A model generated the notes under the pieces. The model was given only the letters and a program-made list of their open reading frames with translations. It was not told the DNA's origin and did no database searches. A stretch of 64,000 bases of DNA from Alcanivoracaceae bacterium. Lineage in GTDB: Bacteria; Pseudomonadota; Gammaproteobacteria; Pseudomonadales; Alcanivoracaceae. The stretch is from the NCBI GenBank assembly GCA_029212745.1, contig JARGOL010000005.1, positions 27,558 to 91,557 of the forward strand, in the 5' to 3' direction. A program made the position numbers and the translations under genes. Positions 2,552 to 19,745 of this stretch are shown here, piece by piece (position 1 is the stretch's first letter; each line of letters begins with the position of its first letter).

Positions 2552-3702
2552 GACTTGCCCCCAGTCGGTGGCGCGGCCCACAGGCGTTGGCCATCACCGC
2601 GCAGAAAATGAAACAGTGAACGTGCGGCAGCGATATTCAGCAACACAAACACGCTGGCCGTACCTGCCAGTGGCAGGCGGCGCACAGCGGCAACGCGCAA
2701 GCCCAGCAAGGCCACGGCATAACCCAGCAACTGCAAAGCGCCGAAAACCTGCCAGCCAGGACTGTCACTGGCGAGGCTCAGGCACAGGATCGCCAGCAGT
2801 ACCCAGGGCATCAGCAGGCGCAGGAACTTGTGCGCCACAAATCGCAGCCACAGACCCGGGCGCGCGGGCAGAAGACCCAGCGCCGGCACGACGCACTGCC
2901 ACACGCCGGTCAGGGTGCGCACCTTGCGACGCAGCTCCAGCGCATCCGCAGCCGGCGGCTGGTCCCAGGCCACGGCGCGACTATCAAGCGCAACGCGGAA
3001 ACCACGACGCAGGACATACAGGGGCTGCAGCAGGTCGTCCACCAGGGCGGCCGCGGGCAGTGGCGTATAAAGTGACGCCCGCATGGCGTACACCGCACCG
3101 GTGACACCCATGACCGAGCCGCTGTCCGATTGCCATTGGCGCACGCGCTGCTCCAGCGCCCAGTAGGCGCCCATGGGCGCTTCGCCGGTGTCCGCGTCGC
3201 GCGGCCTGAAACACAGGCGCCCACTGACCGCACCGATGGTGTCATCCGCGAAGTTGTCGAGCAGACGCGCCATCACATCAGGCTCGAAGTGCTGGCGCGC
3301 ATCGGCAAAAACAAGGATGTCACCGCTGGCCAGGGCCGCCGCCTGGTTCAGTGCCGCCGGCTTGCCGCAGTTCACTGCCAGCAGTACCGGCCGCAGTCGT
3401 GGCCTGGCCGGATCCGTGCGCCACCGGGCAGCGATCTGCAGCAGCACATTGTCCGTGTCATCACTGGAACCGTCGGAAACCACCACTATCTCGACACGAT
3501 CCATGGGGTAATCCTGGCGGGAAATATTGTCCAGGCGCGCCGGCAGCCGCTCGGCTTCGTTGTATACCGCCAGCAGCACACTGACGGTGGGCGTGTTCGG
3601 CTGGCGATGCACAGGTCGGGCATGCACCCGGCGCCAGAGCCACAACCAGGCCGGATAACCCAGGTAGGTAAAAAACAGCAGGGCAAGCAACAGGGATAGC
3701 AT
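2548..3702 (-). CDS. glycosyltransferase family 2 (GT-A) with N-terminal TM helix
   Basis: The internal ATG at 3702, 6 nt after the upstream stop, gives MLSLLLALLFFTYLGYPAWLWLW. This is followed by VSVLLAVYNE, VVSDGSSDDT and FADAR motifs and C-terminal TM helices. Confidence 0.85.
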   Translation of the reverse strand: MLSLLLALLFFTYLGYPAWLWLWRRVHARPVHRQPNTPTVSVLLAVYNEAERLPARLDNISRQDYPMDRVEIVVVSDGSSDDTDNVLLQIAARWRTDPARPRLRPVLLAVNCGKPAALNQAAALASGDILVFADARQHFEPDVMARLLDNFADDTIGAVSGRLCFRPRDADTGEAPMGAYWALEQRVRQWQSDSGSVMGVTGAVYAMRASLYTPLPAAALVDDLLQPLYVLRRGFRVALDSRAVAWDQPPAADALELRRKVRTLTGVWQCVVPALGLLPARPGLWLRFVAHKFLRLLMPWVLLAILCLSLASDSPGWQVFGALQLLGYAVALLGLRVAAVRRLPLAGTASVFVLLNIAAARSLFHFLRGDGQRLWAAPPTGGKS

Positions 3703-3707
3703 CACGG

Positions 3708-5021
3708 TCACAGCAGCACCCTCACCACCAGGTACAGGAACACCAGGCTCAGCGGCACGAACAGCGCCAGGAAACCGGTCAGGGATTTTCCGGTCACAGC
3801 TGCCAGCGATGCATCTCCGGCACGCACCTTGTGAAAATAGGCCACTGACATGCCGCACACCATGTACAGCACGACGATATAACTGCGACTGAGGAAAAAC
3901 GCCGCCGAAAGATAGGCCAGCATGGTGTAGAGCAGCATTTCCCCTTCCACCACCAGTGGCGACGGCCCGTTACTGGCTGGCTTGCGCCGGCCGAAGGCCC
4001 GGCCTTCTGGACCGGATGCCAAAGCCTCGTCGTCGGCCTGCACAGCAGCCAGGCGTGACTGGCGCGCGCGCCAGACCATCAAGGCACTGGCTGCGATCAG
4101 CAGCGTCCAGAACAGGTACCCGGCCAGGCCCAGCTCGGCCAGTACAAGCACATAGCTGTTGTGGGCAGTAAGGTCATGATACTCGGTAAAATTGTTCATC
4201 CCGACACCCAGGAACGGGTTCTGCTTGAATAACTGGATGCCGGTGTACCAGGCTTCGATACGCCCGGCTGCGGACTCTTCCTCGGCATTGATGCTGCGCA
4301 TGCTGGACAGCACCACGTACATCACCGGCGACGCCACCAGCGCAGCCACGGCTGAACGAGCCATGCCATAACGGCGGTAGCCCGCCACCGCCACCAGCAA
4401 CAGCAACGTCAGGACGGCGCCGCGAGAATGTGTCAGGTATATGCCATAGACATGAAACAGGGCCAGGCCATACCAGCAAAACCGCATGAAGGCACTGGCA
4501 GCCAGACGTGCGCGCATGAGGATCATGGGAATGGCCACCAGGAACATCAGGCCCAGGTCATTGGGGTCATTGAAGATACCCACCCAGGTCACGCGATTGC
4601 CTTCAACCACGCGGGCGCCGGACCAGCCAATGCCGGTCTCCAGCTGCTGCACACTGTGCACCACCATGACTGTCGTGCAGGCCACCACCAGCAGGCACAG
4701 ACGCCCCAGCCGCCCGGGTTCACGCAGCTGGTGGCTGTACACCAGATACGTGGCAACCACCGGACCAAACTCCCGCACGATAGTAACACCGCCCCCCAGC
4801 CAACCATTGGCAGCGGACGACAGCACCATCACCGCCAACAGGAACAGCAGCGCCCATGAGGGCACATCGCGCAGGCCGAAGTCCCGACGCATCAGGGTCA
4901 ACAACATGGCGCCGCCCAGGAAAATGCTCATCAGGGGTGTGCCATGCAGTGGCGCGATAAAATCCTGTGGCCGCAGCAACAGGAACAGCGTGTACAGGCA
5001 CAGCAGCAGGAAACCAATCAT
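3708..5021 (-). CDS. O-antigen ligase/polymerase (Wzy_C) family membrane protein, exosortase-locus type
   Basis: 437-aa multi-pass membrane protein with LTHSRGAVLTLLL and TAHNSYVLVLAELGLAGYLF motifs. ATGA overlap with the upstream stop at 5018..5021. Confidence 0.8.
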   Translation of the reverse strand: MIGFLLLCLYTLFLLLRPQDFIAPLHGTPLMSIFLGGAMLLTLMRRDFGLRDVPSWALLFLLAVMVLSSAANGWLGGGVTIVREFGPVVATYLVYSHQLREPGRLGRLCLLVVACTTVMVVHSVQQLETGIGWSGARVVEGNRVTWVGIFNDPNDLGLMFLVAIPMILMRARLAASAFMRFCWYGLALFHVYGIYLTHSRGAVLTLLLLVAVAGYRRYGMARSAVAALVASPVMYVVLSSMRSINAEEESAAGRIEAWYTGIQLFKQNPFLGVGMNNFTEYHDLTAHNSYVLVLAELGLAGYLFWTLLIAASALMVWRARQSRLAAVQADDEALASGPEGRAFGRRKPASNGPSPLVVEGEMLLYTMLAYLSAAFFLSRSYIVVLYMVCGMSVAYFHKVRAGDASLAAVTGKSLTGFLALFVPLSLVFLYLVVRVLL

Positions 5022-6058
5022 GCACCAGCCTCCAGCGCCTGCCAGCTGCGCGAACGTGACAGCAATGAACGCAGTGTGCGGCCGTACAGATGGGTGGCCG
5101 GTACCAGCAGGTGACTGACCGGCGTCTGGCGACAGCCAAACCGGGCTTTCCAGGAGCCGGGCTCGCCCTTCATGAAATCGTACTCCCTGATTCCAGAGAC
5201 GATGGCATCCTCGATCATGCTCACATGCAGGGCGATGCCGGGTGAGAAACCCGACTGGGCACCATCCATGCCTGACTGGTAGAAAAGCCGGGTACCATTG
5301 AAGTCAAACCCGTACCACGCTGCCACCACCTCATCATCACGATAGAGCAGCGCCAGTCGCGCCGGCACCGACGGATCGGCCAGCACTGACTGGTGAAAGT
5401 CGAGGAAACGCCGGGCGCTGAATACGCCGGCCTCACCGCGCTGGCGCCAGCGCGACTGATGCAGGGACACCAGTGCCGGCAACGCCGCAAGCCGCTCGGC
5501 CGGTGCGCGGGCAATGTGCAGGTGCATCTGCTCACGGGTCATGCGCTGGCGGGTACGCCGGACCTTGCTGCGAAAACTGTCAGAGAGACCCGCCAGCCAG
5601 TCATCCAGTGTCGCCGGCAACGGCAAGCTGTAACGCACCCCGCATGGCTGGCTGAAACCACCCGCATGACGGGCGAGGTTCTCCACTGATGAACCCCGCA
5701 GACAATTATCAAACCGGCACAGGTCCCACGGCAGCCGGCCAAGCGCTGACCAGGTATCAGCCGGCGCTGGTTGCAGGACGCCATCGGACAAGTCACAGAA
5801 TTCCGGGCACAACTCCTCCGGCTCGGCATCGCCGGTGCCCGCAAAACGCAATGTCCGCACCGGCACACCCGGGCGCAGCCACCGGCGACGGATGTACAGC
5901 GGCAACAGGGCATCACTGCGGGCAACGAAACGATCGCCGCGATGCTGGTAGTGCGTACGCCAATGCTGCAGCCAGGCCGGCGTCTGGAAAACGGCCGGCC
6001 CCGAGCCTTCCAGCCATGCCTGCCGGTCACTTGCGCTGACGGAAAGAGACAGGCTCAT
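5018..6058 (-). CDS. FemAB-related / CelD-BcsL type GNAT acyltransferase
   Basis: The ATG at 6058 makes an ATGA overlap with the upstream stop. The C-terminal part reads LLYRDDEVVAAWYGFDFNGTRLFYQSGMD ... IREYDFMKGEPGSWKARFG, typical of Acetyltransf_6/FemAB-like proteins of PEP-CTERM loci. Confidence 0.75.
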   Translation of the reverse strand: MSLSLSVSASDRQAWLEGSGPAVFQTPAWLQHWRTHYQHRGDRFVARSDALLPLYIRRRWLRPGVPVRTLRFAGTGDAEPEELCPEFCDLSDGVLQPAPADTWSALGRLPWDLCRFDNCLRGSSVENLARHAGGFSQPCGVRYSLPLPATLDDWLAGLSDSFRSKVRRTRQRMTREQMHLHIARAPAERLAALPALVSLHQSRWRQRGEAGVFSARRFLDFHQSVLADPSVPARLALLYRDDEVVAAWYGFDFNGTRLFYQSGMDGAQSGFSPGIALHVSMIEDAIVSGIREYDFMKGEPGSWKARFGCRQTPVSHLLVPATHLYGRTLRSLLSRSRSWQALEAGA

Positions 6059-7335
6059 CGCAACTGCACCCGCAATGCCAGCCACACACTGGTATTGGTG
6101 TACTCGGCCTGTTCTTGCGTGCTGCTCCTGCCGAGCCAGCCTGTTCCAGCGGTGAGTTCGGTACGTGTATTGAGCAGCCGCGTGGCCGTCACCGTTGCCT
6201 CGCTGTCCCGGTCCACCCGGCCATCATCAAGGAACTCGCGCCGCGTGCTGCTCAGGGCACAACTGACAAAGCCGGTGTCAGCCTCGTAGAGGCGGGTTAC
6301 CAGGCGCGTACCGCGTTCGTCAGAGTCGCGCCGTGTGACACCGCGATCCAGGTAGCGGCGTTGCTTGCCCCAGACAGACACCAGCGGGTCGAGGACAGCA
6401 CGCGAGCCACTGTAGGTCAGGGCGGCACTGCGCTGGCGGTAGGCACCTGTGCCTTCAATGCCGGCCACCAATGTGCCGTTGGCAAGGCTTTCCAGGTCAC
6501 TCGCCTCGTCGCTGAATTCCTGGTTGGCGGTAACAACCAGCTGGCGGTCGGCGGACACCATCCAGTTGGCCCGAAAGCGGCCGACGTCGCTCTGCTCCGG
6601 GTCAAAGCCCTGCTCCTTGAGCCAGCCTTTGCCGGCCTCCAGTGACAGGCCACTGCGCATACCGCGATAGCTGAAGCCAGCAACAGCCTGACGTGTGCGG
6701 TAATCCGGAAAGTTGCCGCTGTATTCCGTGGCGCTGTAATCGACACGGGCGAACACCTGCAAACGCTGCCGTGGCTGCCGCGTCAGGTTGGCAGAACCGG
6801 TATTACGGAAGTAACGCTCGTCCCCACTGACAATACGCTGGCGCCGCCCGGACAGGACAAGGGCATTCAGGTCACCCAGACGCAGTCGCGCAGTGGGGCC
6901 CGTGCCCAGCAGCCGGACCGTTTCGGAGTTACTGTCGATATTCGGTGCTGCAGGATCAACCACCTGGACGGATTCCACATAGTCCACATTCCAGTCAAGC
7001 ATTTCCGGCTGCAACAACCAGCGGAAATTGCCCACCGCTTCCGCATCGAATTGTCCATCCAGCAACTGGTGCTGGTACTCCTGGTAATTGAACGCACCAT
7101 CAAGGGCCCAGGTATATTGCTCACCCTGCTGCTGCCCGCTGGCCTCCAGCCGGGAGCGGTAAACCATGCCCGAGCGTGGCTCATCATTGCTGGCGGTAAC
7201 ATTGCTCTGGTACTCGGTAAACAGGCTACCCGCAACCCTCAGGGGCACCTGGCTTTCCGATGCGCTGGCTACAGCACAAACCACCAGCAGGCCTGCGGCG
7301 AGTAGTCCCTGCATCCCTGCGAGTTTCCGCTGCAT
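6055..7335 (-). CDS. putative outer-membrane beta-barrel protein of the EPS locus
   Basis: The internal ATG at 7335 gives the signal peptide MQRKLAGMQGLLAAGLLVVCAVASASE. The rest is a long alternating-polarity, Tyr/Arg/Ser-rich sequence. Position between the kinase-like and FemAB-like genes matches PEP-CTERM-associated barrel proteins. Confidence 0.55.
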   Translation of the reverse strand: MQRKLAGMQGLLAAGLLVVCAVASASESQVPLRVAGSLFTEYQSNVTASNDEPRSGMVYRSRLEASGQQQGEQYTWALDGAFNYQEYQHQLLDGQFDAEAVGNFRWLLQPEMLDWNVDYVESVQVVDPAAPNIDSNSETVRLLGTGPTARLRLGDLNALVLSGRRQRIVSGDERYFRNTGSANLTRQPRQRLQVFARVDYSATEYSGNFPDYRTRQAVAGFSYRGMRSGLSLEAGKGWLKEQGFDPEQSDVGRFRANWMVSADRQLVVTANQEFSDEASDLESLANGTLVAGIEGTGAYRQRSAALTYSGSRAVLDPLVSVWGKQRRYLDRGVTRRDSDERGTRLVTRLYEADTGFVSCALSSTRREFLDDGRVDRDSEATVTATRLLNTRTELTAGTGWLGRSSTQEQAEYTNTSVWLALRVQLR

Positions 7336-7345
7336 GACGAACAGA

Positions 7346-8143
7346 TCACTTGCCGGAGAACGGCGGTCGGGGCACACGGTTGAGCACCACACCGGCCAGT
7401 CGTTCCTGGCCTACCGTGTTGGCCACTTCCAGCAACCGGTTCTCGGACACCTCTCCGTAAGGCGCTACCACCAGGGCCTGGTCACACAGGTCAACAAGGA
7501 TGCGGGAATCCGCAGATTCGTCCAGCGGCGGCGCACTGATGATCAGGAAACGGTCCGGGTAGCGCTGCTTGACCGATTGCAGGAAGGCACGCATGCGCAG
7601 GGAGGTAAAGAATTCGGTGCTGCTCTCGAAATGACTGCCTGCCGGGATCAGACGCAACCGGGGAATGCCGGTCTGGTACAGCACGGCGTCCACACCCATG
7701 CTGTCATCGACCAGGTAATCGGTCAGGCCCTTGTCCACATCAATGTCCAGCAACCGGGCCAGGCGCGGGTCCTGCACATGGCAATCAATCAGCAAGGCGG
7801 TCTTGGCGCTGTCCAGTGCATAGGCAATGGACAGGTTCAATGCCACAAGGGTCGAGCCCGCCGTACCACCAACGCCCGCCACCAAGGTAATGGCGTTATC
7901 CCCCTTGCTGTGCTGCAACAGCCGGGTACGCAGGTTACGGAATTCATCCAGCACGGCACGGTCGGTCATGCCGGGATGAATCAGCCGGCGTTCCGCCATG
8001 AATGCCGCATCACGCTGCCAGTCGTCCCGCATGCGTGCGATCTGCCGGGTGCTGTCTGCCAGGCTGGCCAGGTCCCGGGTGGTCTCATCGCCGGCGCTGG
8101 AGGCGTTGCTGTCATGCTCGTCCATCAGATCACCTGTAGCCAT
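7346..8143 (-). CDS. BY-kinase-like (MinD/ParA fold) chain-length regulator ATPase homologue (EpsG-type) with degenerate Walker motifs
   Basis: The sequence ITLVAGVGGTAGSTLVALNLS ... LLIDCH ... RFLIISAPPL ... GVVLNRV aligns to the Wzc-type P-loop domain. An alternative ATG lies at 8125. Confidence 0.7.
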   Translation of the reverse strand: MATGDLMDEHDSNASSAGDETTRDLASLADSTRQIARMRDDWQRDAAFMAERRLIHPGMTDRAVLDEFRNLRTRLLQHSKGDNAITLVAGVGGTAGSTLVALNLSIAYALDSAKTALLIDCHVQDPRLARLLDIDVDKGLTDYLVDDSMGVDAVLYQTGIPRLRLIPAGSHFESSTEFFTSLRMRAFLQSVKQRYPDRFLIISAPPLDESADSRILVDLCDQALVVAPYGEVSENRLLEVANTVGQERLAGVVLNRVPRPPFSGK

Positions 8144-9666
8144 TTCAGTACCGCGGCGAACAGGTAACAACCGACAATCGCGGCGGTCACCATTGCCATC
8201 TTGCGCCACTGTTGCGCCTCATCCTGGCGTTCCCGGGGCGTCTGGATTTCATGAATCTCTCCCGCGACTGGCAGGCCCAGCTGGTCAGCGATCTGCTCAC
8301 TGATGCGCACCCGCGGGTCCACCTGCAGCAGGCCGAGCACGGCCGCCACCGGCAGCAGCAATGCCAGCGGCAGGCCAAGCAGGGCCAGATGCAGGAAACG
8401 CAGGCCATAGGGCTTGAGCGACAGCCGGGCTGGCTCCTGCACCTTCATGGTCAGGCCGCGCTCCTCTATATCCAGATGCATGGACACACGTGCCTTTTCC
8501 CGGCGCCGCAGAAGATCCTGGTACAGATCACGATTCACTTCGTAGTCACGGGTCAACTCTGCCAGGGCCGCTTCTGCATCATGGATGCGTTTGATGCGTT
8601 CGTTTTCTTCGGCAAGCATGCCTTCCGTTTCGGTAATGCGGGCCTCAAGGGTGGCGATCTCGGTACGCGCCTGTGACAGTTCGCTGCGCAGTTGCTGGTA
8701 CAGTGGTGAATTGGCAATGGACTCATCAATGTAGGCCTCACCCCGGGCACGGGCCTCGCGGATGCGCTGTTCACGCTGCACGCGCTCCTGCTCAATGGCA
8801 TGGTTCAGCTCTTCGATCTGGCTTTTCAGCTGAACGATATCGGGGTAGGTGTCATGGAAGCTGAGCCGCAACGTGTCCAGCTCCATTTGCAGCTCCGCGA
8901 TCCGCGAGCGATACGCGCCCTCACGGGCCATACCGCGGGTGACATCCGCCTCTCCTGACAACTGCTGCTCCAGGGAATCAGCACGGATACGGGTTTCACT
9001 CAGCTCAAGCCGACTGCCCTCGAGCCTGCGGCGCAATTCGGAAATGCGTTTGAACGAATCAGTGGCGGTTCCCTCGATATTCTCGGAGCGGTACTCCTTC
9101 AGCCGTGACTCCGCCTCGATCAGCTTCTTGTGGTAATCCCTGACCTGTTTGTCGATGAACGCGTAGGCTTCCTGGCTTTCCTGGCGCTTGGCACTGGCAC
9201 TTTCGGTCACAAACAACTCGGCATACTTCTGCGTTACACGGAATGCCATTTGCGGTGACGGGTCGCGGTACTCAATGCGAATCAGCGACTGGCCGCTGCC
9301 AAGGATACGGGTGCGCTTCTGTACATCATCAATCAGTCGCTCGAGTTTCAGCTCCGACAGGTCATCCACCTGCATGCCAGCCTCACGCAACACCTGGAGC
9401 ATGATGCGCCGGCTGAACAACAGCTCGCGCGCATTCTGGGCCTGGTCCTTGACGCCAGTGGCGACCGCAGTACCTTCCATCAGCGGCCGGATGATATTGC
9501 TCTCATCCGCATGGATGACGGTGTAGGAACGGTACACTTTGGGTAACAGCATGGCGGTCAGCAGTACCGCAACACTGATCACGGCAAACGCCACAAAGAC
9601 AGCGCGACGATAGCGATACAGCTCTCGCCACAAAAGCGTCAGCAACTGGTCAATTGAAAAACCCAT
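8125..9666 (-). CDS. Wzz/polysaccharide co-polymerase (EpsF-type chain length determinant)
   Basis: 513 aa. An N-terminal TM helix is followed by a long coiled-coil-like periplasmic region (many E/R/L heptads) and a C-terminal TM pair, the PCP architecture. Confidence 0.8.
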   Translation of the reverse strand: MGFSIDQLLTLLWRELYRYRRAVFVAFAVISVAVLLTAMLLPKVYRSYTVIHADESNIIRPLMEGTAVATGVKDQAQNARELLFSRRIMLQVLREAGMQVDDLSELKLERLIDDVQKRTRILGSGQSLIRIEYRDPSPQMAFRVTQKYAELFVTESASAKRQESQEAYAFIDKQVRDYHKKLIEAESRLKEYRSENIEGTATDSFKRISELRRRLEGSRLELSETRIRADSLEQQLSGEADVTRGMAREGAYRSRIAELQMELDTLRLSFHDTYPDIVQLKSQIEELNHAIEQERVQREQRIREARARGEAYIDESIANSPLYQQLRSELSQARTEIATLEARITETEGMLAEENERIKRIHDAEAALAELTRDYEVNRDLYQDLLRRREKARVSMHLDIEERGLTMKVQEPARLSLKPYGLRFLHLALLGLPLALLLPVAAVLGLLQVDPRVRISEQIADQLGLPVAGEIHEIQTPRERQDEAQQWRKMAMVTAAIVGCYLFAAVLKWLQVI

Positions 9667-9675
9667 GGCAACAAC

Positions 9676-10359
9676 CTAGAACAAACGCTCAGGCACGGTC
9701 AGGACATCACCGGGGAGCAGGGAGAAATTGGTTTCCAGCTGGCCACTGTTGAGGATGTCGTCGAGCGACACTTCAAGCACCTGCTGGCCAGATCCGGCCG
9801 CACCGGCACGGCGGTAAAGCCGGGCGCGTCCGGGGGATGCAAATTCATTCAGGCCACCCGCCAGCAACACCAGGTCGAGCACCGTCATTCCCTGGCGAAA
9901 CGGCACAGAAATGGGCGAACGGACTGCGCCGGTAACCCGTACGCGGGAAATGAACTCGTGACTGCGCAACTCGATCAGGATGACACTGACTTTCGGATCA
10001 CGCACATAATCGGACAACGCGGCTTCAATACTTCGCGACACTGCCTCTGGCGTTTTTCCACCGGCGTCGATATCACCGACAAGGGGCACACTGATACGGC
10101 CATCCGGACGCACAGGCACCTGAATGGACAGCTTGTCATTACCCCAGACACTGACAAGGACGATGTCATCCAGGCCAATGCGGTAGGTATCGACGAGGTC
10201 GAAAGCGGCAGTGGCCGATGGCGCTTCCTGCGCCGGCACGGGTGCCATGACGGTCACTGCCGTGGTGTCGCGCGGGGAATCTTCAGCAGGGTTCTCAATC
10301 GACCGGTTCTGGCATGCAACCAGCACCATGCAGGTTAGAGCAGCAAACAAGACACGCAC
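9676..10359 (-). CDS. polysaccharide export lipoprotein (Wza/EpsE-type, Poly_export + SLBB)
   Basis: The ORF track start at 10395 is TTG. The GTG at 10359 with an AAGGGA RBS gives the lipoprotein signal MRVLFAALTCMVLVAC. Motifs YRIGLDDIVLVSVWGN and GAVRSPISVPFRQGMTVLDLVLLAGG are present. Confidence 0.8.
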   Translation of the reverse strand: MRVLFAALTCMVLVACQNRSIENPAEDSPRDTTAVTVMAPVPAQEAPSATAAFDLVDTYRIGLDDIVLVSVWGNDKLSIQVPVRPDGRISVPLVGDIDAGGKTPEAVSRSIEAALSDYVRDPKVSVILIELRSHEFISRVRVTGAVRSPISVPFRQGMTVLDLVLLAGGLNEFASPGRARLYRRAGAAGSGQQVLEVSLDDILNSGQLETNFSLLPGDVLTVPERLF

Positions 10360-10493
10360 GGACAGTCCCTTCCCCTGATAAAAAAATCGTAGCAAAAAAG
10401 CACGCTTATTGGCCTACACATCCCGGTCCGGCCTGCGGCTCAAATTTTTCAAGGCTGCATCATACAGGTGCGCCGCCATTGATCTGATAGTAT

Positions 10494-11162
10494 TTGTCGT
10501 ACAATCAACGTTCGGAGCGCCCCTTCTTGGATTATCTGCACTGTTACCGCGTGCTGGAACTGGACGCAGACAGCAACTGGGAGACAGCACGCAGACACTA
10601 TCGCACACTGGCGTCGCGTCATCATCCGGACCGTCCCGGCCACGACACCAGCGGGCCGTCCCAGGCAGAGCTGAACAGGGCCTATGGCCTGTTGCGGGAC
10701 TACTACCAGCAGCACCAGCGATTACCCCTGCAGAAAACCGCGACGCCGAGCACGCCGTTCCGCCCTGGCGCATCTCCGGTGCACCGCACACCAGCCAGGG
10801 CGGCACAGCCACGGAGATGGACACGCAATATCCTGCGCCTTGGCATTGCCGGCGCCGCGGCCGTCGCGATTCTTGTGTTCTGGCCCGATCAACCGGGCAG
10901 GCAACCCGAGCAGGCACGTTCACCTGCGGTATCCCTGACCACCACAGAGGCAGAGGAAACACCGGTGATCCGGTTGGGTGATCGCCTCGGCCATGTGGCC
11001 CAGGTCCTCGGCCCACCAAGGGACACCCGCAATGATCGCTGGTACTATGGCGACTCGTGGATAGAGTTCAGGGACGGACGCGTGGCGAACTGGTATTCCT
11101 CCGTAGACACTCCCCTGCCTGTCGACCTGATCAGCATCAGCGATGGAACACCCAAACAATGA
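10494..11162 (+). CDS. membrane-anchored J-domain (DnaJ-like) protein
   Basis: The J-domain reads YRVLELDADSNWETARRHYRTLASRHHPDR ... AELNRAYGLLRD, including HPD. It is followed by a Pro-rich linker, a TM helix ILRLGIAGAAAVAILVFW, and a short W/Y-rich C-terminal domain. The frame has no in-frame ATG, so the start must be TTG (10494 or 10527). Confidence 0.7.
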   Translation: MSYNQRSERPFLDYLHCYRVLELDADSNWETARRHYRTLASRHHPDRPGHDTSGPSQAELNRAYGLLRDYYQQHQRLPLQKTATPSTPFRPGASPVHRTPARAAQPRRWTRNILRLGIAGAAAVAILVFWPDQPGRQPEQARSPAVSLTTTEAEETPVIRLGDRLGHVAQVLGPPRDTRNDRWYYGDSWIEFRDGRVANWYSSVDTPLPVDLISISDGTPKQ

Positions 11163-12151
11163 CCAAGCAGGCTTTCCTCGCCGGCTGCCTTGCCAGACTG
11201 GGCATTCTTCGCCTGATGATCCGGCGGCAACACAAACGCCTGCCGGTTCTGGCTTACCACCGCATCCTTGACGACGACAGTGATCCGGCAACATTGGCGG
11301 ACCCTGGCCTGTTCAGTGCCACGGCCAGCTCGTTTGATGCGCAGATGGCGCTGGTCTCGCGTCACTTCAATGTCATCACCCTGGCACGGCTGCTTGATCC
11401 GGCACCGCTACCGCCACGCCCACTGGTGATTACCTTTGATGACGGCTACGAGGATAACTACCGTATCGCGTATCCGATCCTGAAAAAGCATGGCCTGCAC
11501 GGTGTCTTTTTTGTTACCACCGGCTTCATCGATGACGGCCAGCCATTGTGGTTCGACCAGGTCGCCATCCTGCTTGACCAGTCCACCCTGCCGCACACCC
11601 TGGACGTGGCAGGTCGCCGCCTGCTGCCCCATGCGTTACCGCGCCAGCAGCTGGTGCAGCAGGTGCTGGCGCACCTGAAGTCGCTCACCGCCGAGGCCCG
11701 CCAGGCCGAAATCAAGCTACTGGAACGGCAGACCGGCAACCCCCGCATTGCCGCGGGCACCCCCATGACCTGGGCCCAGTTGCGGCACATGGCCGACAAC
11801 GGCATGGAGATCGGCTCGCACTCGCGTTCCCACAGTGTTCTTGCCAACGAAACCGCAGGTACCATCACGGCGGAGCTTGCCGAGTCACGCCAGCAGATCT
11901 GTGAGCAACTGCAGCGCGACTGCGTATCCGTGGCCTATCCGGTGGGCGGCACCAGCGCCGTCAATGACCAGGTCCTGCACGCGGCCAGGGAGTGCGGTTA
12001 CGGCATCGGCTGCACCTACCTGTCGGGCATCAACCGGCTGCCATTGCGGGACCCGCTGGCCCTGGTGCGTGTGCATGTGGAACTGGACGTGACGCTGGCA
12101 CAGTTTTATGCCCAGCTGGCGCTGCCTGACCTGTTCGGGTACCGCCACTGA
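11159..12151 (+). CDS. polysaccharide deacetylase (NodB/CE4 family)
   Basis: The ATG at 11159 makes an ATGA overlap with the J-domain gene stop. Motifs LAYHRI, ITFDDGYEDNY and GSHSRSH are present. Confidence 0.85.
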   Translation: MTKQAFLAGCLARLGILRLMIRRQHKRLPVLAYHRILDDDSDPATLADPGLFSATASSFDAQMALVSRHFNVITLARLLDPAPLPPRPLVITFDDGYEDNYRIAYPILKKHGLHGVFFVTTGFIDDGQPLWFDQVAILLDQSTLPHTLDVAGRRLLPHALPRQQLVQQVLAHLKSLTAEARQAEIKLLERQTGNPRIAAGTPMTWAQLRHMADNGMEIGSHSRSHSVLANETAGTITAELAESRQQICEQLQRDCVSVAYPVGGTSAVNDQVLHAARECGYGIGCTYLSGINRLPLRDPLALVRVHVELDVTLAQFYAQLALPDLFGYRH

Positions 12152-13662
12152 TGAAACGGGCAAGCGCGCTACGCAATACGGCCCACGCGACACTGGCCAC
12201 CTGGACCGAATTCTTCCTCGGCATGCTGGTGTCGATCACCATCGCCCGCAGCCTGGCACCGGATACCTATGGCCACTTCAGTTTCATGATGTGGTGCGCC
12301 GCCGTGTTTGTGGTATTCGGTAACGGCGGCCTGACAACAGCGATCATCAAGTTCATGGCAGAGGCCGGCCTTGATGAACGGGGCGCCACCTATCGCTATC
12401 TGGCGCGACTGCAACTCGGCGCCCTGGCTGCTGCCTGTGCCATCGTGCTTGTGGGCGCACAGCTGCAGCCGGCCTTCTTTACCGCCACAGCCGACACCAG
12501 CCTGTGGCTTGCATTGCTGGCCGCCAGTGCGCTGAAAGCCAGTTACATCTTCCGCATGTCGGCGAGCAAGGGACTGGAAGACTTCAATGCCATTTTCAAG
12601 GTGGTACTGGTGGTCGCCCCGGCCAATCTCGCCGCCGCCCTGCTGGTGGCGCTGTGGCAACCCTCGTTGCAGAACTTCGTGCTGGTCTATCTGCTCACCT
12701 GCGCTCTCTACCTGGTGATGATGCAACTGGTGCAACGTCATCAACGCCCCGTCGCACCGCTGTCACCACAATTGCGCCAGCGCATCTGGCGGCACCTGTG
12801 GATCACCAGTGTCAGCATCATTCTTTCCTTCCTGGTGCTGAAACAGTCGGAGGTGTTTTTCCTGCGGTTGTACGCCAGTGCCGAAGATATCGGCTTTTTC
12901 AATATCGCATTTACCCTGGGTTTCGCCCTGTCTGCCTTGTTTCCGGGGGTCTACAGCGCCCTGCTGCTGCCGATGATGTCACGCCAGTCAGCGGGCGCGC
13001 ATGGCCAGCGGGCACAGACACTGCACACCTCGGTGCGTTACCTGCAACTGCTGGCCTGGCCCATGGTGCTGGCAACCCAGGTGCTGGGCGGTGCGCTGGT
13101 GGCGGTGCTCTATGGCAGCGCCTATGAATCGGCCGCGCTGGCGCTGATGTGGGTCATCGCTGGCGTTGGCATTGCCGCTGTGGGTCAGGCCGGTGTCAGC
13201 CAGCTGGTCAGCAGTGACCGGCAAAATGTGGTGCTGCGCATCAACGTGCTGGTGGCGATAGCGGTACTGGCCATGGACTGGTGGGCCATACGTCACTGGC
13301 AGCTCAGCGGCGCAGCCGTGGCATTTGCTGTTGGCAACGCCGTGCATGCAACCCTCATGCTTCGCCTGGCCCTGCTCAGCTGTGCCACGCGCTGGCAGTG
13401 GATGCCCACGTTCAGGACGCTGCTGGCAGCATCCGTCCCGGCGCTTGTTACCTGGCCACTGGTGATTGGGCTGGACAGGGTTGGCGGGCCGTTGTTATCA
13501 CTTCTGCTTGGCGCACTTTGCTACACCCTGCTGTTCATCCCAACGACCCTGCTTTGCGGTTGCTGGACGGCCGGGGAGATTGATCAGCTGCACGCTCTTG
13601 CCGGCCGTCTACCCGCCCCCCTGCGGGCGCCAGTACGCATGTTGCTGGCTGTTCGCAGATAG
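12151..13662 (+). CDS. Wzx-type polysaccharide flippase (MOP superfamily)
   Basis: 503-aa protein with about 12-14 TM helices. TGATG overlap with the deacetylase stop. Confidence 0.8.
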   Translation: MKRASALRNTAHATLATWTEFFLGMLVSITIARSLAPDTYGHFSFMMWCAAVFVVFGNGGLTTAIIKFMAEAGLDERGATYRYLARLQLGALAAACAIVLVGAQLQPAFFTATADTSLWLALLAASALKASYIFRMSASKGLEDFNAIFKVVLVVAPANLAAALLVALWQPSLQNFVLVYLLTCALYLVMMQLVQRHQRPVAPLSPQLRQRIWRHLWITSVSIILSFLVLKQSEVFFLRLYASAEDIGFFNIAFTLGFALSALFPGVYSALLLPMMSRQSAGAHGQRAQTLHTSVRYLQLLAWPMVLATQVLGGALVAVLYGSAYESAALALMWVIAGVGIAAVGQAGVSQLVSSDRQNVVLRINVLVAIAVLAMDWWAIRHWQLSGAAVAFAVGNAVHATLMLRLALLSCATRWQWMPTFRTLLAASVPALVTWPLVIGLDRVGGPLLSLLLGALCYTLLFIPTTLLCGCWTAGEIDQLHALAGRLPAPLRAPVRMLLAVRR

Positions 13663-13763
13663 CCAGCGGCTGGCGCGTGTCCGACAGCAGCACGGTGATT
13701 GCGTCTTAACGCGGCCGTTTTCTGCTACAGTCCGGCAACGGAACAGGGACAACACATACACGG

Positions 13764-15824
13764 ATGTCGACTTCACTGCTGCTGGTTATATCACTCGCCT
13801 GCGCCATCACATGGATTGGCCTGGCCGGTTATGCCCTGTCACTGGGACGCCAGCACAGCGCCACCCGGCCCTTGCTGTGGCTGTCCGTGATCAGCGCCGC
13901 CTGGACCTTCAGCCTGGTAAAACCCGAGACCCTGCCAACCCCCCTCTGGCTGGCCCTTAGCCATGCCGCCGAGGCGGCCCGGCTGCTGGCCTGGTGGGTG
14001 CTGGTCCAGGCCACCGCCGGCTACCGGCTGATACATGGCCAGCAGGGGCTGGTGGGCCTGCGCCGTTTCCAGTGGCTGTTACTGGCCTGCCTGGTCCTGA
14101 TTCTCTACTCCGGTGCCAGCCATCTTGCCGGTCTCCCGGCACTGCGCCTTTCCGTCACCGCCATGGCATTTGTCATTGCCAGCCTGCTCCCGCTGGTGGC
14201 CATGGAGCAGCTGTTCCGCAACATGGATCAGGAGCAGCGCTGGGCAATCAAGTTTTTCGTATTGGCGCTGGTTGCCAGCACGGCCATGGACGTGATCACA
14301 CACCTGCATACCCTGCTTTACGCCCGCGTTGACTTGCAGCTGTGGCTGGCACGGGCACCGGTGGGGCTGGTCACTGCCCTGCTCATGGGCGCCGGCCTGC
14401 GCCGCTTGTTGCGCCTGCCTGCCATGGTTTCCCTGTCACACCAGCTGGTGTTCTACACCGGTACGCTGGTCACCACCTCCCTGGCCCTGTTTTTATTGGC
14501 CGCCGGCGCCTGGTACATCCGCCGCTGGGGTGGCGCCTGGTCCACCGTGTTCCTCGCGCTGTTTATCAGTGCCGGTCTTGCGGTGCTCGCCAGCGCCCTG
14601 CTGTCCGGGCGTTTCCGGGCCTGGCTGCAGGTATTCCTGTCCCGCCATTTCCTGCCCTACCGTTATGACCACCGCATGGAATGGCTGCGACTCAGTGAGA
14701 CGCTGGCGCGCGCGGCCGAGCAGAACAGCCTGCCCATTACCGTGGTCCAGGCGCTGGCCAACATCGTCGACAGTCCCGCCGGATTGCTGTTTCTCGTACG
14801 TGACAAACAGCTCCTGTGCCAGGCCGACTGGAACCTGCCGGCGCCACAGCAGCCCCTGCCACTGGATGACACCACGCGGGCCAGGATGCATGAGCAGCAG
14901 TGGATTCTTGATCGCGACCGGGATGACGCGGCGGACATTCCCGACTGGATGAGCCGCATTGACCGCAGCTGGCTTGCTGTGCCCCTGCTGGACGATCACG
15001 GCCCCGTGGCTGTGGTGGTCCTGGCTCATCCGCGTGCCCGGCGACGGCTGAACTGGGAAGACTATGACCTGCTGCGGGTTGCTGCTCGCCAGGCCGGTGC
15101 CGTGATGGCGCTGCAACTGGCCGGCGACGCACTGGGCCAGGCGCGCCAGTTCGCGGCCCTGCACCAGAGCACCGCTTTCCTGGCCCATGACATCAAGACC
15201 ATGATTGCGCAGCTTTCCCTGCTGGCCCGAAACGCCGAACGCCATCGCGACAACCCGGCTTTTGTCGACGACATGATCGAGACGGTGCAGCACAGCGTGG
15301 AGAAAATGGAGGATATCCTGGCACAACTGCGTCAGCCCTCTGGCGGCGTTTGCGCAACAGAGTGCTCTGCCATTGCCCTGCTGCCGTTGCTGCAGGACAC
15401 CGTGCGCAGACTGTCTCGTTTCCAGCCATCGCCAACCCTGGAAACGGATGACGACCCGGGTTGTGTCCAGGCCCGCCATGAGGACCTGGTTACCGTGCTC
15501 AACCATCTGGTGCGTAACGCCCAGCAGGCTTGTGATGACAGCGGCAGTGTGCACATCCGGGCGTTCAGGGATAACGGTGATATTGTCATTGAAGTGCAGG
15601 ATTCAGGGCGCGGCATGAGTCCGGCATTCATTCGCGACAACCTGTTCACGCCTTTTCACAGCACCCGTGGTGTGTCGGGTATGGGTATTGGCGTTTTCCA
15701 GAGCCGCTCACTGATCGAAGCCATGGGCGGCTCATTGTCAGTGGACAGTCGCGAAGGTGTTGGCTCCTGTTTTACTATTCGCCTGCCGGCAGCCGAACCG
15801 GCCAACAGGGATGAACCGCTATGA
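13764..15824 (+). CDS. prsK: PEP-CTERM system sensor histidine kinase
   Basis: 686 aa. It has a large multi-TM N-terminus, a GAF-like middle region, an H-box FLAHDIKT and an HATPase_c domain (VIEVQDSGRGM ... GMGIGVF). It is genetically coupled to prsR. Confidence 0.85.
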   Translation: MSTSLLLVISLACAITWIGLAGYALSLGRQHSATRPLLWLSVISAAWTFSLVKPETLPTPLWLALSHAAEAARLLAWWVLVQATAGYRLIHGQQGLVGLRRFQWLLLACLVLILYSGASHLAGLPALRLSVTAMAFVIASLLPLVAMEQLFRNMDQEQRWAIKFFVLALVASTAMDVITHLHTLLYARVDLQLWLARAPVGLVTALLMGAGLRRLLRLPAMVSLSHQLVFYTGTLVTTSLALFLLAAGAWYIRRWGGAWSTVFLALFISAGLAVLASALLSGRFRAWLQVFLSRHFLPYRYDHRMEWLRLSETLARAAEQNSLPITVVQALANIVDSPAGLLFLVRDKQLLCQADWNLPAPQQPLPLDDTTRARMHEQQWILDRDRDDAADIPDWMSRIDRSWLAVPLLDDHGPVAVVVLAHPRARRRLNWEDYDLLRVAARQAGAVMALQLAGDALGQARQFAALHQSTAFLAHDIKTMIAQLSLLARNAERHRDNPAFVDDMIETVQHSVEKMEDILAQLRQPSGGVCATECSAIALLPLLQDTVRRLSRFQPSPTLETDDDPGCVQARHEDLVTVLNHLVRNAQQACDDSGSVHIRAFRDNGDIVIEVQDSGRGMSPAFIRDNLFTPFHSTRGVSGMGIGVFQSRSLIEAMGGSLSVDSREGVGSCFTIRLPAAEPANRDEPL

Positions 15825-17176
15825 GCCGACGATTGCTGATCATTGAAGATGATCCCGGCCTGCAGAAACAGATGAAGTGGTGTTTCGATGGTATCGACAT
15901 CAGCCTGGCCGACAAGCGGGATGCTGCCCTGGCCGAGCTGCGACGGCTGGACCCGCAGGTGGTCACACTGGATCTGGGCCTGCCACCGGACCCCGGCGGC
16001 GCCAGTGAAGGCTTCGCACTGCTGAAAACCATTCTCGAACTGCGACCGCGCACCAAGGTGATCGTCATCACGGGCCGCGAAGAACGCGAGCATGCGGCGC
16101 GGGCCATCGGTATGGGGGCGTGCGATTTCTACCAGAAACCCCTGGACGCTGACACCCTGAACTTTGTCGTCAACCGGGCGTTTCGCCTGGATGAGCTGGA
16201 ACAGGAGAACCGGCGCCTGTCCCGCCATGACGCATCGCCCCTGGCAGGCATTATTGCCACCAGCCCGGAAATGCTTGCCACCTGCCAGTACGTGGAAAAG
16301 ATTGCCGGGGCTGACATTACCACCCTGATCCTGGGAGAAACCGGCACTGGCAAGGAAGTCATAGCCCGTGCCATCCATGGGCTGAGCGACCGGGCGCAAG
16401 CACCGTTTGTGGCCATCAACTGTGCTGCCATTCCGGAAAACCTGCTGGAAAGTGAGCTTTTCGGCTATGAAAAAGGGGCCTTTACCGGCGCTAACCGGCA
16501 GAAGCAGGGCAAGGTGGAAGCGGCCACGGGCGGCACACTGTTCCTGGATGAAATTGGTGACATGCCGGTGGCGCTGCAGAGCAAGATGCTGCGCTTCCTG
16601 CAGGAGCGCGTGATCGAACGTGTCGGTGGCCACGACAGCATTCCCGTGGACGTCCGCGTCATATGCGCAACACACCAGGATCTCGGCGACATGATCGGCC
16701 AGGGAAGCTTCCGCGAAGATCTTTACTACCGGATTGCGGAGATGGTCATCGAGCTGCCACCGTTGCGCGACCGGCAGGGTGACGCCGTGGTACTGGCAAA
16801 CGCCTTTGTCGGCCAGTTTTCCGAACAGTTGAAGAAAAACGTCAAGGGACTGGCGGATGACGCCGTCAGCGCCATCAACTGCTACCGATGGCCAGGCAAT
16901 GTCCGGGAAATGGAAAACCGGCTCAAGCGGGCGGTACTGATGGCCGACGGCCCCTACATCACTGCCTCGGACCTGCAGCTGTCGGATGCCCCCGATCAGC
17001 AGGCCAAGCCCGAGGCGTTGAACCTGCGCCAGGTGCGGGAGAAAGCCGAGTCACAGGCCATTCGCCAGGCCCTGTTGCTGAGCGGCAATAACGTTGCTGC
17101 CGCCGCACGGTCGCTGGGTGTTACCCGACCCACGCTGTACAGCATGATGGAAAAGTACGGCCTGAAAGGCCACTGA
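15821..17176 (+). CDS. prsR: sigma54-dependent response regulator (NtrC family), PEP-CTERM system
   Basis: ATGA overlap with prsK. It has a REC domain, an AAA+ domain with GETGTGKE and the GAFTGA loop (EKGAFTGA), and a C-terminal Fis-type HTH. Confidence 0.9.
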   Translation: MSRRLLIIEDDPGLQKQMKWCFDGIDISLADKRDAALAELRRLDPQVVTLDLGLPPDPGGASEGFALLKTILELRPRTKVIVITGREEREHAARAIGMGACDFYQKPLDADTLNFVVNRAFRLDELEQENRRLSRHDASPLAGIIATSPEMLATCQYVEKIAGADITTLILGETGTGKEVIARAIHGLSDRAQAPFVAINCAAIPENLLESELFGYEKGAFTGANRQKQGKVEAATGGTLFLDEIGDMPVALQSKMLRFLQERVIERVGGHDSIPVDVRVICATHQDLGDMIGQGSFREDLYYRIAEMVIELPPLRDRQGDAVVLANAFVGQFSEQLKKNVKGLADDAVSAINCYRWPGNVREMENRLKRAVLMADGPYITASDLQLSDAPDQQAKPEALNLRQVREKAESQAIRQALLLSGNNVAAAARSLGVTRPTLYSMMEKYGLKGH

Positions 17177-17184
17177 CGCAGGCG

Positions 17185-18585
17185 TCAGCGGCCGCGCCCG
17201 AACAGCACTACCTCAACCGTCTGCGCCAGGATCATCAAATCCAGCAACAGGCTCCGGTTCTTGATGTAGTAAAGATCATACTGCAGCTTTTCGACGGCAT
17301 CTTTTTCCGTGGAGCCGTAGGAATAGTTCAGTTGCGCCCAGCCAGTGATGCCCGGTTTGACCAGATGACGTTCGTTGTAGAACGGGATTTTCTCCGCCAG
17401 GTCCGAGACAAACACCGGACGTTCCGGCCGAGGCCCGACAAAACTCATGTCACCGCGCAGCACATTGAATGCCTGCGGCAGTTCATCAATACGGTACTTG
17501 CGAATAAAGGCACCGACGCGGGTGACGCGCATATCATCCTTGCTGGCCCACTGGGCACCACCCGCCTCCGCATTCTCGATCATGCTGCGGAACTTGATCA
17601 CGTTGTAGGGCTCGCCGTTGGCGCCAATCCGCTCCTGCAGGTAAAAAACCGGGGCGCGCAGGCCGTCCTCCAGCTTGATTGCCAGTACCGTGACCAGCAT
17701 CAGCGGCCAGGTCAACAACACCAGCAAAACACTGAAGAACACATCCATGCTGCGACGCAACGTGTCCGTGGCCGGGTTGTGGGAAAAACCGTCGGAGAAA
17801 ATGAAGTAGCTGGGCTTGAGCATGTCCACCAGGATCTTGTAGGACTCCCGCTCAAAAAACGTCTGCACGTCAATGATGCTCAGCCCGCCAAGGCGACAAC
17901 GCAACAGCTCGTCCACCGGCACGCAGCCGCGCCGGTCATCCACGGCAATGACCACCTCATCGATATCCATGGCCTGGATCAGGTCACACAGGGGTTTGCT
18001 CGACTGCACCAGCAGGTTCTCGGGCACCTGCACGGCGTCTTCGTCCACCGGGTAAAAGCCGATCAGGCGGAAATTGCGCTGGTCGTTGCGCCGCCGCATG
18101 CGCTTGAGAATGCTGCCCGCCTCGGCCCCGGCGCCCAGCACCAGTACCCGCGCCTTGAGCCGCTCGATGCCCACAACCCGGTAAAACACCAGACGGCCAA
18201 CAAGCACGCCAATAAACGACGTCAGCGTGGCCAGCGCCATCACGCCCCGGCCAACGAAAGCATTCGGGAACAGGTAGTAGACCACCACCAGCAACACCGT
18301 CCCGATCACCAGGGACAGGGCCAGGCGTACGGTGACACCGTTGATGCCGTCGCGCAGGTTGGGCAGGTACAGCCCCAGTGCCAGGAAACAGAGCCAGTGG
18401 GTAACGGCAAATAGCAGCGCCCGCGCCCAGACATCACCGATGCTGATGTCGATGGCTACCCAGTCGGCCTGGAAACGGAGCATGGCCCCGACGTAAATGG
18501 CCAGGAACAGGATCAGGAACTCAATCAGTGCCAACGCAATGAATGAGGAATCAATATGGTGGCGAAACACTCTTATGGTTGTCAT
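17185..18585 (-). CDS. initiating polyprenyl-phosphate sugar phosphotransferase (EpsB/WbaP-type bacterial sugar transferase)
   Basis: The ATG at 18585 has an AAGGGGAAG RBS (ORF track start 18609). The protein has N-terminal TM helices, a Rossmann-like middle region and a C-terminal catalytic domain (KFRSM ... MSFVGPRPERP ... KPGITGWAQ). Confidence 0.85.
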   Translation of the reverse strand: MTTIRVFRHHIDSSFIALALIEFLILFLAIYVGAMLRFQADWVAIDISIGDVWARALLFAVTHWLCFLALGLYLPNLRDGINGVTVRLALSLVIGTVLLVVVYYLFPNAFVGRGVMALATLTSFIGVLVGRLVFYRVVGIERLKARVLVLGAGAEAGSILKRMRRRNDQRNFRLIGFYPVDEDAVQVPENLLVQSSKPLCDLIQAMDIDEVVIAVDDRRGCVPVDELLRCRLGGLSIIDVQTFFERESYKILVDMLKPSYFIFSDGFSHNPATDTLRRSMDVFFSVLLVLLTWPLMLVTVLAIKLEDGLRAPVFYLQERIGANGEPYNVIKFRSMIENAEAGGAQWASKDDMRVTRVGAFIRKYRIDELPQAFNVLRGDMSFVGPRPERPVFVSDLAEKIPFYNERHLVKPGITGWAQLNYSYGSTEKDAVEKLQYDLYYIKNRSLLLDLMILAQTVEVVLFGRGR

Positions 18586-18951
18586 GCGAATCTTCCCCTT
18601 GCTGTTCATCCCTGAACGATCCGGCCTGCTGACCGGGCGGAGAATTATGCGCCTTTCGTGTTAACTTTTGTGACAGAGTGTCCAACAAAAGTGTGCACCT
18701 GTGCACAGAGAAGAGCCGCCACGTACGAACAAGCTCTGACTGTGTCGGTTTGCTTTACACCGTTTTTCACCCTTTCGGGCGATCATGGCAACGTGATGTT
18801 ACCGTGAATCAATCACTTGCCCAGCGGCCAAAAAAATTGCGGCCATTTGTAAAATTTTTCTGTCAGCTTTTTTGACGGACGCGCGTACTCATTGCCCCGC
18901 TCGGCCAGCCAGAAATCACAAAACCCATTGTTTACAAGCAGTTGCAAAACA

Positions 18952-18966
18952 TGGCACGGCCTTTGC
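18952..18966 (+). promoter_or_regulatory. sigma54 (-24/-12) promoter upstream of the PEP-CTERM gene
   Basis: TGGCAC GGCCT TTGC is an exact match to TGGCAC-N5-TTGC. It lies 60 nt upstream of the ATG at 19026. Confidence 0.7.
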
Positions 18967-19025
18967 CTTTGTCAGGCCAACGACAGGACCGTCGCCCTGT
19001 TCAAGGCTCACCGAAGGAGAAAGAC

Positions 19026-19745
19026 ATGAATTTCAAGCGCTTTGCACTGGCTGTACTTCTGGCCGGCGCCGCCGCCCAGGCACCCGCCGCCATGATTGCC
19101 GGCTCTTCACTGCAGAACGTCCTCAACAACATCACCGTCGGCAGCGATTCCAGTGTGGATGTCCAGACCGACCAGATGGACAACGACGAGATGTGGTCCA
19201 TCACCGGCTCCGGCGGCAGCGTTGCCACCATCGTCATCGAGCTGGCGGGCTACGCCGGCAGCAACTCCTTCGGTATTTATGACGTGTCCAACCCGGCCAA
19301 CTTCGTGGAAATCATGGGTGGCTCTGCCAGCCAGGGTGACCAGGCCTTCGTATCCATCAAGGCAGACGGCAGTGTCTATGTGAACAACGCCGATACCACC
19401 GTGGATTTCGCCGATAACCTGTTCGGCTACTACCTCAACGTGGCCGCCACCGGTAACCGCTTCTACTCCCAGCAGGCGTTGAATGCCGATGGCGTGGATC
19501 ACCTGGCCGCCTTCCAGGGCAACGACAGCGACATTGTGCAGCTGCCCAACCTGGCGCCCGGCGTATGGACCGACAACGAATACGTGCTGGCATTTGAAGA
19601 CCTGTGGGGCGGCGGCGACCGTGACTTCACTGACTTCGTTGCCATGGTCGAGTCTGTTACCCCGGTACCGGCACCGGCCTCACTGGCGCTGCTTGGCCTG
19701 GCGCTTGCCGGCCTGACCATCAGCCGCCGCCGCAAGGCCGCCTGA
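19026..19745 (+). CDS. PEP-CTERM sorting-domain protein (DUF4114-like secreted protein)
   Basis: The ATG at 19026 has a GAAGGAGA RBS. The signal peptide is MNFKRFALAVLLAGAAAQAPA. A GGGDRDFTDFV motif is present. The C-terminus PVPAPASLALLGLALAGLTISRRRKAA is a VPxP motif plus TM helix plus Arg cluster. Confidence 0.85.
   Translation: MNFKRFALAVLLAGAAAQAPAAMIAGSSLQNVLNNITVGSDSSVDVQTDQMDNDEMWSITGSGGSVATIVIELAGYAGSNSFGIYDVSNPANFVEIMGGSASQGDQAFVSIKADGSVYVNNADTTVDFADNLFGYYLNVAATGNRFYSQQALNADGVDHLAAFQGNDSDIVQLPNLAPGVWTDNEYVLAFEDLWGGGDRDFTDFVAMVESVTPVPAPASLALLGLALAGLTISRRRKAA

Follow-up and report, generated by a model that had tools for sequence, protein, structure and literature searches.

A membrane-anchored J-domain protein family encoded beside the export module of proteobacterial exopolysaccharide loci

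Membrane-tethered J proteins are a means by which cells aim Hsp70 at particular machines. To our knowledge, few bacterial members of this group have a known target. The stretch of DNA analyzed here (64,000 nucleotides from an Alcanivoracaceae bacterium, hereafter the window) carries an XrtA/PEP-CTERM exopolysaccharide (EPS) locus at positions 60..22200, and one gene of this locus had been predicted, from the letters of the sequence, to encode a membrane-anchored J-domain protein coupled to a polysaccharide deacetylase. What does a J protein do in a polysaccharide locus, and with which part of the locus does it belong?

The locus is divided between the two strands. On the minus strand, it encodes an stp2-like GT4, a PaaK-like ligase, a GT2, an O-antigen-ligase-like protein, a 355-aa protein and a 445-aa outer-membrane protein and, further along, a BY-kinase homologue, a chain-length determinant and an export protein. 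The J gene runs in the opposite direction, on the plus strand, together with the genes for the deacetylase, a flippase, PrsK and PrsR. Beyond PrsR lie EpsB_2 (minus strand), a PEP-CTERM protein and PrsT, and XrtA is encoded on the same contig, outside the window and ~6 kb upstream of it. The genes that matter for the argument are as follows.

7346..8209, minus strand: BY-kinase homologue (TIGR03018, 180 bits, below the cut-off of 230.65), with GVGGTAGST, no Walker-A lysine and no C-terminal Tyr cluster
8125..9666, minus strand: chain-length determinant (TIGR03007)
9676..10395, minus strand: XrtA/PEP-CTERM-type polysaccharide export protein (TIGR03027, 185.8 bits), divergent neighbor of the J gene
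10527..11162, plus strand: gene of the J-domain, transmembrane (TM) and BamE-like protein, 211 aa from the likely TTG start at 10527; the longest ORF, from TTG 10494, gives 222 aa
11159..12151, plus strand: polysaccharide deacetylase (PF01522), downstream partner of the J gene only in the lineage of the window and not at that position in most loci
12151..13662, plus strand: Wzx-like flippase (Polysacc_synt_3, profile match)
17185..18609, minus strand: priming glycosyltransferase EpsB_2 (TIGR03013), here separated from the J gene by deacetylase, flippase, prsK and prsR

Within the J gene and at its borders, the following elements were assigned, all on the plus strand (residue numbers are those of the 211-aa form).

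10514..10517, plus strand: GGAG Shine-Dalgarno-like element, 9 nt 5' of TTG 10527, read from the sequence
10527..10736, plus strand: J-domain, residues 1-70, with HPD encoded at 10623-10631
10737..10820, plus strand: Pro-rich, predicted cytoplasmic linker with an Arg-rich end (positive-inside signal), AF2 pLDDT <65
10821..10880, plus strand: single transmembrane helix, residues 99-118 (AF2 helix), hydropathy 1.96
10962..11132, plus strand: predicted periplasmic BamE/SmpA_OmlA-like domain, residues 146-202 (AF2, Foldseek)
11159..11162, plus strand: ATGA overlap of the J-gene stop (TGA 11160-11162) and the deacetylase start (ATG 11159-11161)

The open reading frame at 10494..11162 (plus strand, 222 aa) contains no internal ATG, and our reading of the sequence agrees with the original prediction that a TTG start is needed. 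The position of the start had been placed at 10494 and should probably be moved: the second in-frame TTG, at 10527, is likely the better start, because GGAG lies 9 nt upstream of it, in homologues from two other genomes (G019 and G012) the corresponding MD[FY]L position carries an ATG start, and the database gene call for this protein is the 211-aa form (P0001). The overlap between the J gene and the deacetylase gene is seen in the sequence as had been described, and so is the following one, in which the deacetylase stop shares one base with the flippase ATG at 12151. G019 and G012 also have the J gene followed by deacetylase and flippase, with a 6-nt gap in place of the overlap of the window. 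Although the deacetylase coupling exists, it is not a general feature of the family, as it was found only in the genus of the window and in one further genus (g5). A scan of the 131-bp J/export intergenic region found no sigma-70-like promoter and no sigma-54 promoter. The motif TGGCAC-N5-TTGC has three exact matches in the window (18952-18966, 22329-22343 and 26357-26371), two upstream of PEP-CTERM protein genes and one inside an aldehyde dehydrogenase gene; none falls in the J/export intergenic region. With at most one mismatch, 7 matches were found against 10.4 expected, which is not above chance.

The J-domain is supported by both profile and fold. Pfam DnaJ (PF00226) matches residues 17-70 of the 222-aa ORF with 30.9 bits (gathering cut-off 27.8), and relatives of the protein score 37-62 bits. 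The HPD motif (H33-P34-D35), placed between helices II and III, is invariant in 35 aligned family members, which argues for a working DnaK partner. In the AF2 model, computed from an 18-sequence alignment, J-domain residues 1-70 have pLDDT >90, and a Foldseek search with the whole model returned J-domains alone (i.e., those of Sis1, Tid1, CbpA and Tim14, with prob up to 1.0). NCBIfam models gave generic J-region matches only (DnaJ, TopJ and DjlA). Identity with class A DnaJ, the class defined by G/F region, zinc-finger and C-terminal substrate-binding domains, was rejected (TIGR02349, 24 bits vs 377, with the match confined to the J region). The view that the ORF is spurious, or its J-domain a degenerate relic, could draw on the required TTG start and on a Pfam score just 3 bits over the cut-off. 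Conservation excludes it, leaving a negligible probability: homologues are 44-57% identical and keep their synteny, HPD does not vary, both domains are modeled confidently by AF2, and the relatives lie well within the Pfam DnaJ range given above. As to the partner, a scan of the genome of the window (G000) with PF00012 found one full-length Hsp70, DnaK (C11:16864-18666), and a partial match of 51 bits (C20:200906-201217); no second Hsp70 of the HscA or HscC type was detected in this whole-genome scan. The genome encodes four J proteins.

The Pro-rich linker, the single TM helix (RRWTRNILRLGIAGAAAVAILVFWP) and the W/Y-rich C-terminal domain that had been read from the sequence are all present, and the AF2 model shows a second linker between helix and C-terminal domain. 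The helix of the window protein is flanked by 5 K+R on its N-side and 2 on its C-side. Over 122 family members, the means are 3.8 and 1.2, respectively, and 105 of the 122 have the N-in orientation by the positive-inside rule. This bias predicts a cytoplasmic J-domain and a periplasmic C-terminal domain.

The C-terminal domain has the motif G..L..V....G.P......W.YG.S.I.F..G.V..W.....PL and is compact in the full AF2 model (residues 148-200, pLDDT about 95); modeled alone, it reaches pLDDT 96.9. A resemblance to small BamE/SmpA-like folds had been suggested, and structural comparison bears it out. The top PDB matches in Foldseek are BamE chains from Neisseria and E. coli (5wam_B, 7tt0_E, 5d0o_E), OsmE (4dm5) and BLIP-like proteins; the BamE matches have prob 0.84-0.99 and TMq 0.58-0.63, with E only ~0.1 for this 57-residue query. 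The domain thus has in common with BamE/SmpA_OmlA (PF04355), OsmE and BLIP-like repeats a small helix-plus-sheet fold (Foldseek prob 0.99, TMq 0.61), and with BamE the motif G..(S/T)..(E/Q)V...(L/Q)G.P...W.Y. The copy in the window is too divergent for the Pfam BamE model and gave no match, but the model recognizes relatives above its cut-off of 23.2 (P0018, 28.9; P0150, 26.2; P0028, 24.7; P0033, 23.5). A sequence-profile search of the domain against PDB gave sub-threshold hits only (OmlA 2pxg, E 0.63; BLIP-like 3d4e). The proteins also differ. BamE is lipid-anchored, whereas the J protein has neither an N-terminal signal peptide nor a lipobox, and its domain follows an internal TM helix that serves as the tether. 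In addition, the repeat of the J family usually occurs in at least two tandem copies, fused to a J-domain.

How large is this family? A word-index search had given 3 clusters, and a profile 18. A family this small was rejected as a sensitivity artifact, since an exhaustive HMMER search over 1.84 billion representatives yielded 750 at E<=1e-30. Most of the best 150 of these 750 are proteins of 280-320 aa that match the whole profile and consist of J-domain, TM helix and two BamE-like repeats. Among 122 full-length members, 86 have two repeats, 18 have three and 14 have one, so the single-repeat form of the window is in the minority. No NCBIfam/TIGRFAM model covers the J-TM-BamE-like architecture, for which generic J-domain matches alone were obtained; full-text literature searches turned up no paper on J-domain or DnaJ together with exosortase or PEP-CTERM, and a broader search of the eps literature returned unrelated Gram-positive papers only. 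The family is large and unnamed, and no curated model or paper was found for it.

Several relatives depart from the common form. The BamE-like repeat is also present in proteins lacking a J-domain (P0023 and P0028), in tandem arrays of 3-5 copies, and P0023 has in addition an extra N-terminal hydrophobic segment and YxRxDGTYVxPHxRTAPD repeats. In one genus (g138; L139 5239-5988 in G151, and G331:C9:39971-40468), the gene that takes the place of J, between export and EpsB_2, aligns with only the J and TM part of the profile (positions 1-146/164); the WxYGxS repeat was not detected in it, and its periplasmic domain may be divergent or missing. A match in G025 was set aside as a different J protein (a PF12339-type N-terminal region, encoded beside dxs/ispA) and not a homologue.

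We then turned to the genes with which the J family is found. In Alcanivoracaceae, 6 of 25 genomes have the TIGR03027 export gene, and exactly those 6 carry a full-length J gene, always divergently adjacent to it. A scan of named genomes gave 42 loci from Acidiferrobacteraceae, Sulfurifustaceae, Sulfuricaulis, Nitrosomonadales, Burkholderiales, Lysobacterales (including Mizugakiibacter sediminis skMP5, L064), Chromatiales and others. EPS genes are present in 38 of the 42; the J gene is divergently adjacent to the export gene in 36, has EpsB_2 as a convergent neighbor in 32, and has both neighbors in 31. The same pair of genes flanks J in orders of both the Gamma- and the Betaproteobacteria. 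In a class sample of 400 evenly drawn genomes, 106 had an export gene above the cut-off, and these included all 13 carriers of a full-length J gene (Fisher p=1.8e-8); none of the 294 export-less genomes had one. The J gene lies in the EPS locus in 11 of the 13. The reverse dependence is weak, as only ~12% of genomes with a PEP-CTERM-type export gene carry J. Linkage to EPS loci, on which the original prediction had been staked, is strongly conserved.

The linkage is, however, to one part of the locus. Three genomes of another genus (g2; G001, G009 and G016) keep J adjoining the export gene, with a convergent EpsB_2 downstream of J, and neither XrtA nor PrsK was detected in them. Their loci (L016, L017 and L015, respectively) combine a module of export, chain-length, kinase-like, outer-membrane (OMP) and asparagine-synthase genes with EpsB_2 and J, i.e., they look like PEP-CTERM-type polysaccharide loci without the exosortase system. 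The linkage therefore follows the export module and not XrtA/PrsK, and the proposed association with PEP-CTERM loci holds for the PEP-CTERM-type export module but fails for XrtA and PrsK themselves. The conserved partner of J is the export/chain-length/kinase-like module together with EpsB_2, not the exosortase system. From the conserved neighbors across loci, the ancestral frame is kinase-like, chain-length and export genes in one direction, J divergent from them, and EpsB_2 convergent with J; in the lineage of the window, deacetylase, flippase, prsK and prsR were inserted between J and EpsB_2. Curated XrtA/PEP-CTERM components (TIGR03007, 03013, 03018, 03027, 02915-02917 etc.) have J encoded in the core of their locus, between the TIGR03027 and TIGR03013 genes; unlike them, J has no model of its own and stays with the export module where XrtA and PrsK are absent.

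Other arrangements exist. In P0017 and G166, J comes last in a co-directional series, after the export, chain-length, kinase-like and OMP genes; in the P0017 arrangement, a 37-aa ORF is called just after J (L020 10922-11035), before a methyltransferase and a GT4. In genus g99 (G112 and G309), the J/EpsB_2 pair is together and the export gene is elsewhere. In G032, a genome of another taxonomic family, a homologue lies beside ligase-like and PaaK-like EPS genes. Finally, some members have no EPS genes nearby: those in G259 and G411 (one genus), in L057, L060 and L022, and the three-repeat protein P0018.

The kinase homologue narrows the type of locus further. In every J-positive locus examined, it lacks the Walker-A lysine (e.g., GGGSSF, GDGASF, and GVGGTAGST in the window) and the terminal tyrosine cluster, whereas all 30 of 30 J-negative PEP-CTERM loci have a kinase with (G/S/A)EGK(S/T) and a YYGYYG-type tail. 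In a tree of 97 homologues, with the Walker-A state checked by eye from the strings, two clades separate (SH-aLRT 99). The clade with an intact kinase keeps the Walker-A lysine and Tyr tail in 46/46 cases, all J-negative; the other, the pseudo-kinase clade, lacks both in 51/51, of which 43 come from J-positive and 8 from J-negative loci. The EPS-locus subtype that carries J is the one in which these two features, Walker-A lysine and Tyr tail, are gone from the BY-kinase homologue. An equivalence between J presence and the pseudo-kinase state was rejected on account of the at least 8 pseudo-kinase loci without J: J implies the pseudo-kinase clade, but the reverse fails, and J is dispensable for that locus type. 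The J state requires at least 5 changes on the kinase tree. Since the pseudo-kinase clade arose once, the association of J with it is largely one evolutionary event rather than many independent ones. In the J-negative loci of the pseudo-kinase clade (among them L132, L133, L135 and L136, from G340, G253, G323 and G137), EpsB_2 shares the strand of the export gene and immediately precedes it, so that absence or loss of J goes with an inverted EpsB_2.

Three kinds of known membrane J proteins offer a comparison. DjlB/DjlC (YbeS/YbeV) have an N-terminal J-domain and a C-terminal membrane anchor; they differ from the protein studied here in their length (~470 aa), in the large cytoplasmic region that fills their middle, in having no domain in the periplasm and in their pairing with an Hsp70 of their own, HscC, where the genome of the window has one full Hsp70. 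Pam18/Tim14 of the mitochondrial import motor is, like our protein, a small bitopic membrane J protein with a short domain across the membrane, and its task is to keep the activation of Hsp70 at a membrane transport machine, on the inner side; Tim14 is also among the Foldseek J-domain matches (2guz_B, TMt 0.79). It is eukaryotic, serves a protein translocase, has its J-domain at the C-terminus and lacks a BamE-like domain, and the resemblance is an analogy in mechanism logic only. DjlA, a J protein of the inner membrane, likewise has a single TM helix and works with DnaK. In E. coli, DjlA and DnaK control the colanic acid capsule through Rcs (PMC11709261), and in Caulobacter DjlA controls an envelope pump post-translationally (PMC10754441). 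Its domain order is the opposite (N-terminal TM helix, TerB-like middle domain and C-terminal J-domain), and it lacks a periplasmic domain and is encoded outside polysaccharide loci. Identity with DjlA was rejected (NF006948, 20.6 bits vs a cut-off of 162, J region only, reversed order). The DjlA-Rcs system, which had been cited as a precedent, stands as a functional one and falls as a homologous one.

What, then, does the protein do? Since members of the family neighbor the export and priming genes in one EPS-locus subtype, the protein is probably an unrecognized, chaperone-linked part of the EPS export machinery. On balance, we favor a bitopic inner-membrane class-C J protein that is a recurrent accessory of one EpsB_2/E/F/G EPS subtype and would tether DnaK to the export complex. 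A cytoplasmic J-domain, flexible linkers, periplasmic BamE-like modules and a place between exporter and priming enzyme best fit a DnaK tether at an inner-membrane complex. The BamE-like domain would dock the protein on the export apparatus, i.e., on the chain-length determinant, the Wza-like exporter or the outer-membrane protein of the locus. The J-domain would recruit the single DnaK of the cell to the cytoplasmic face of the complex and trigger its ATPase, and DnaK could then assemble, remodel or gate a cytoplasmic component. DnaK recruitment is what we infer from the architecture and gene context; docking partner and client are guesses, with the kinase-dead EpsG-like protein or its partner chain-length determinant as the favored client and the priming transferase as the second candidate. 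A bolder version, in which an Hsp70 ATPase cycle replaces tyrosine phosphorylation/dephosphorylation as the assembly switch of the co-polymerase ring, the kinase being a dead scaffold and the BamE-like repeats reporting the state of the export channel, strikes us as improbable.

Other roles must be weighed against a DnaK tether. The protein could act in signaling in the manner of DjlA and Rcs, with J and DnaK controlling EPS gene transcription through their effect on a sensor or regulator, be it PrsK/PrsR or another kinase. A periplasmic sensing domain joined to a cytoplasmic effector domain is a typical signaling layout, the J gene of the window heads an operon that ends in prsK and prsR, and the activation of Rcs and capsule synthesis by E. 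coli DjlA and DnaK (PMC11709261) supplies a model. A signaling role is nevertheless unlikely, because J persists beside the export gene without PrsK and XrtA in G001, G009 and G016, and because no regulator is a conserved neighbor: most loci offer export and priming genes, and the J/export intergenic region gave no sigma-54 promoter. A dedicated co-chaperone for the folding, insertion or quality control of one membrane enzyme, mainly the polytopic EpsB_2, else Wzx or Wzy, would account for EpsB_2 as the convergent neighbor in 32/42 loci and for the J/EpsB_2 pair that genus g99 retains apart from the export gene, and a membrane J protein, DjlA, does control an envelope pump post-translationally in Caulobacter (PMC10754441). 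It leaves the periplasmic BamE-like repeats unexplained, however; J has no EpsB_2 beside it in the P0017/G166 arrangement, nor in five further loci; and loci of the same clade that lack J still have EpsB_2, evidently without needing J. We give this role, too, a low probability.

A general J protein of envelope stress or membrane quality control that merely resides in EPS loci would be in keeping with the members found outside such loci (L022, L057, L060 and G259) and with the BamE-like repeats of the J-less P0023 and P0028. A protein of that kind would hardly be confined as this one is, with 0/294 export-less genomes of the class sample carrying it and the same two genes flanking it across gamma- and betaproteobacterial orders, and we consider this reading quite doubtful. 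The tether of DnaK to the export complex remains our preferred explanation.

Overall, the J family comprises hundreds of 50%-identity clusters and, in sulfur-oxidizing, nitrifying, hydrocarbon-degrading and other environmental proteobacteria, has a fixed place between exporter and priming enzyme in one type of EPS locus. Such EPS loci underlie flocculation and biofilm matrix formation. If DnaK is indeed brought to the export complex, a chaperone-driven step would be added to Wzx/Wzy-type polysaccharide assembly, and there would be a handle on the regulation of loci with a kinase-dead BY-kinase.
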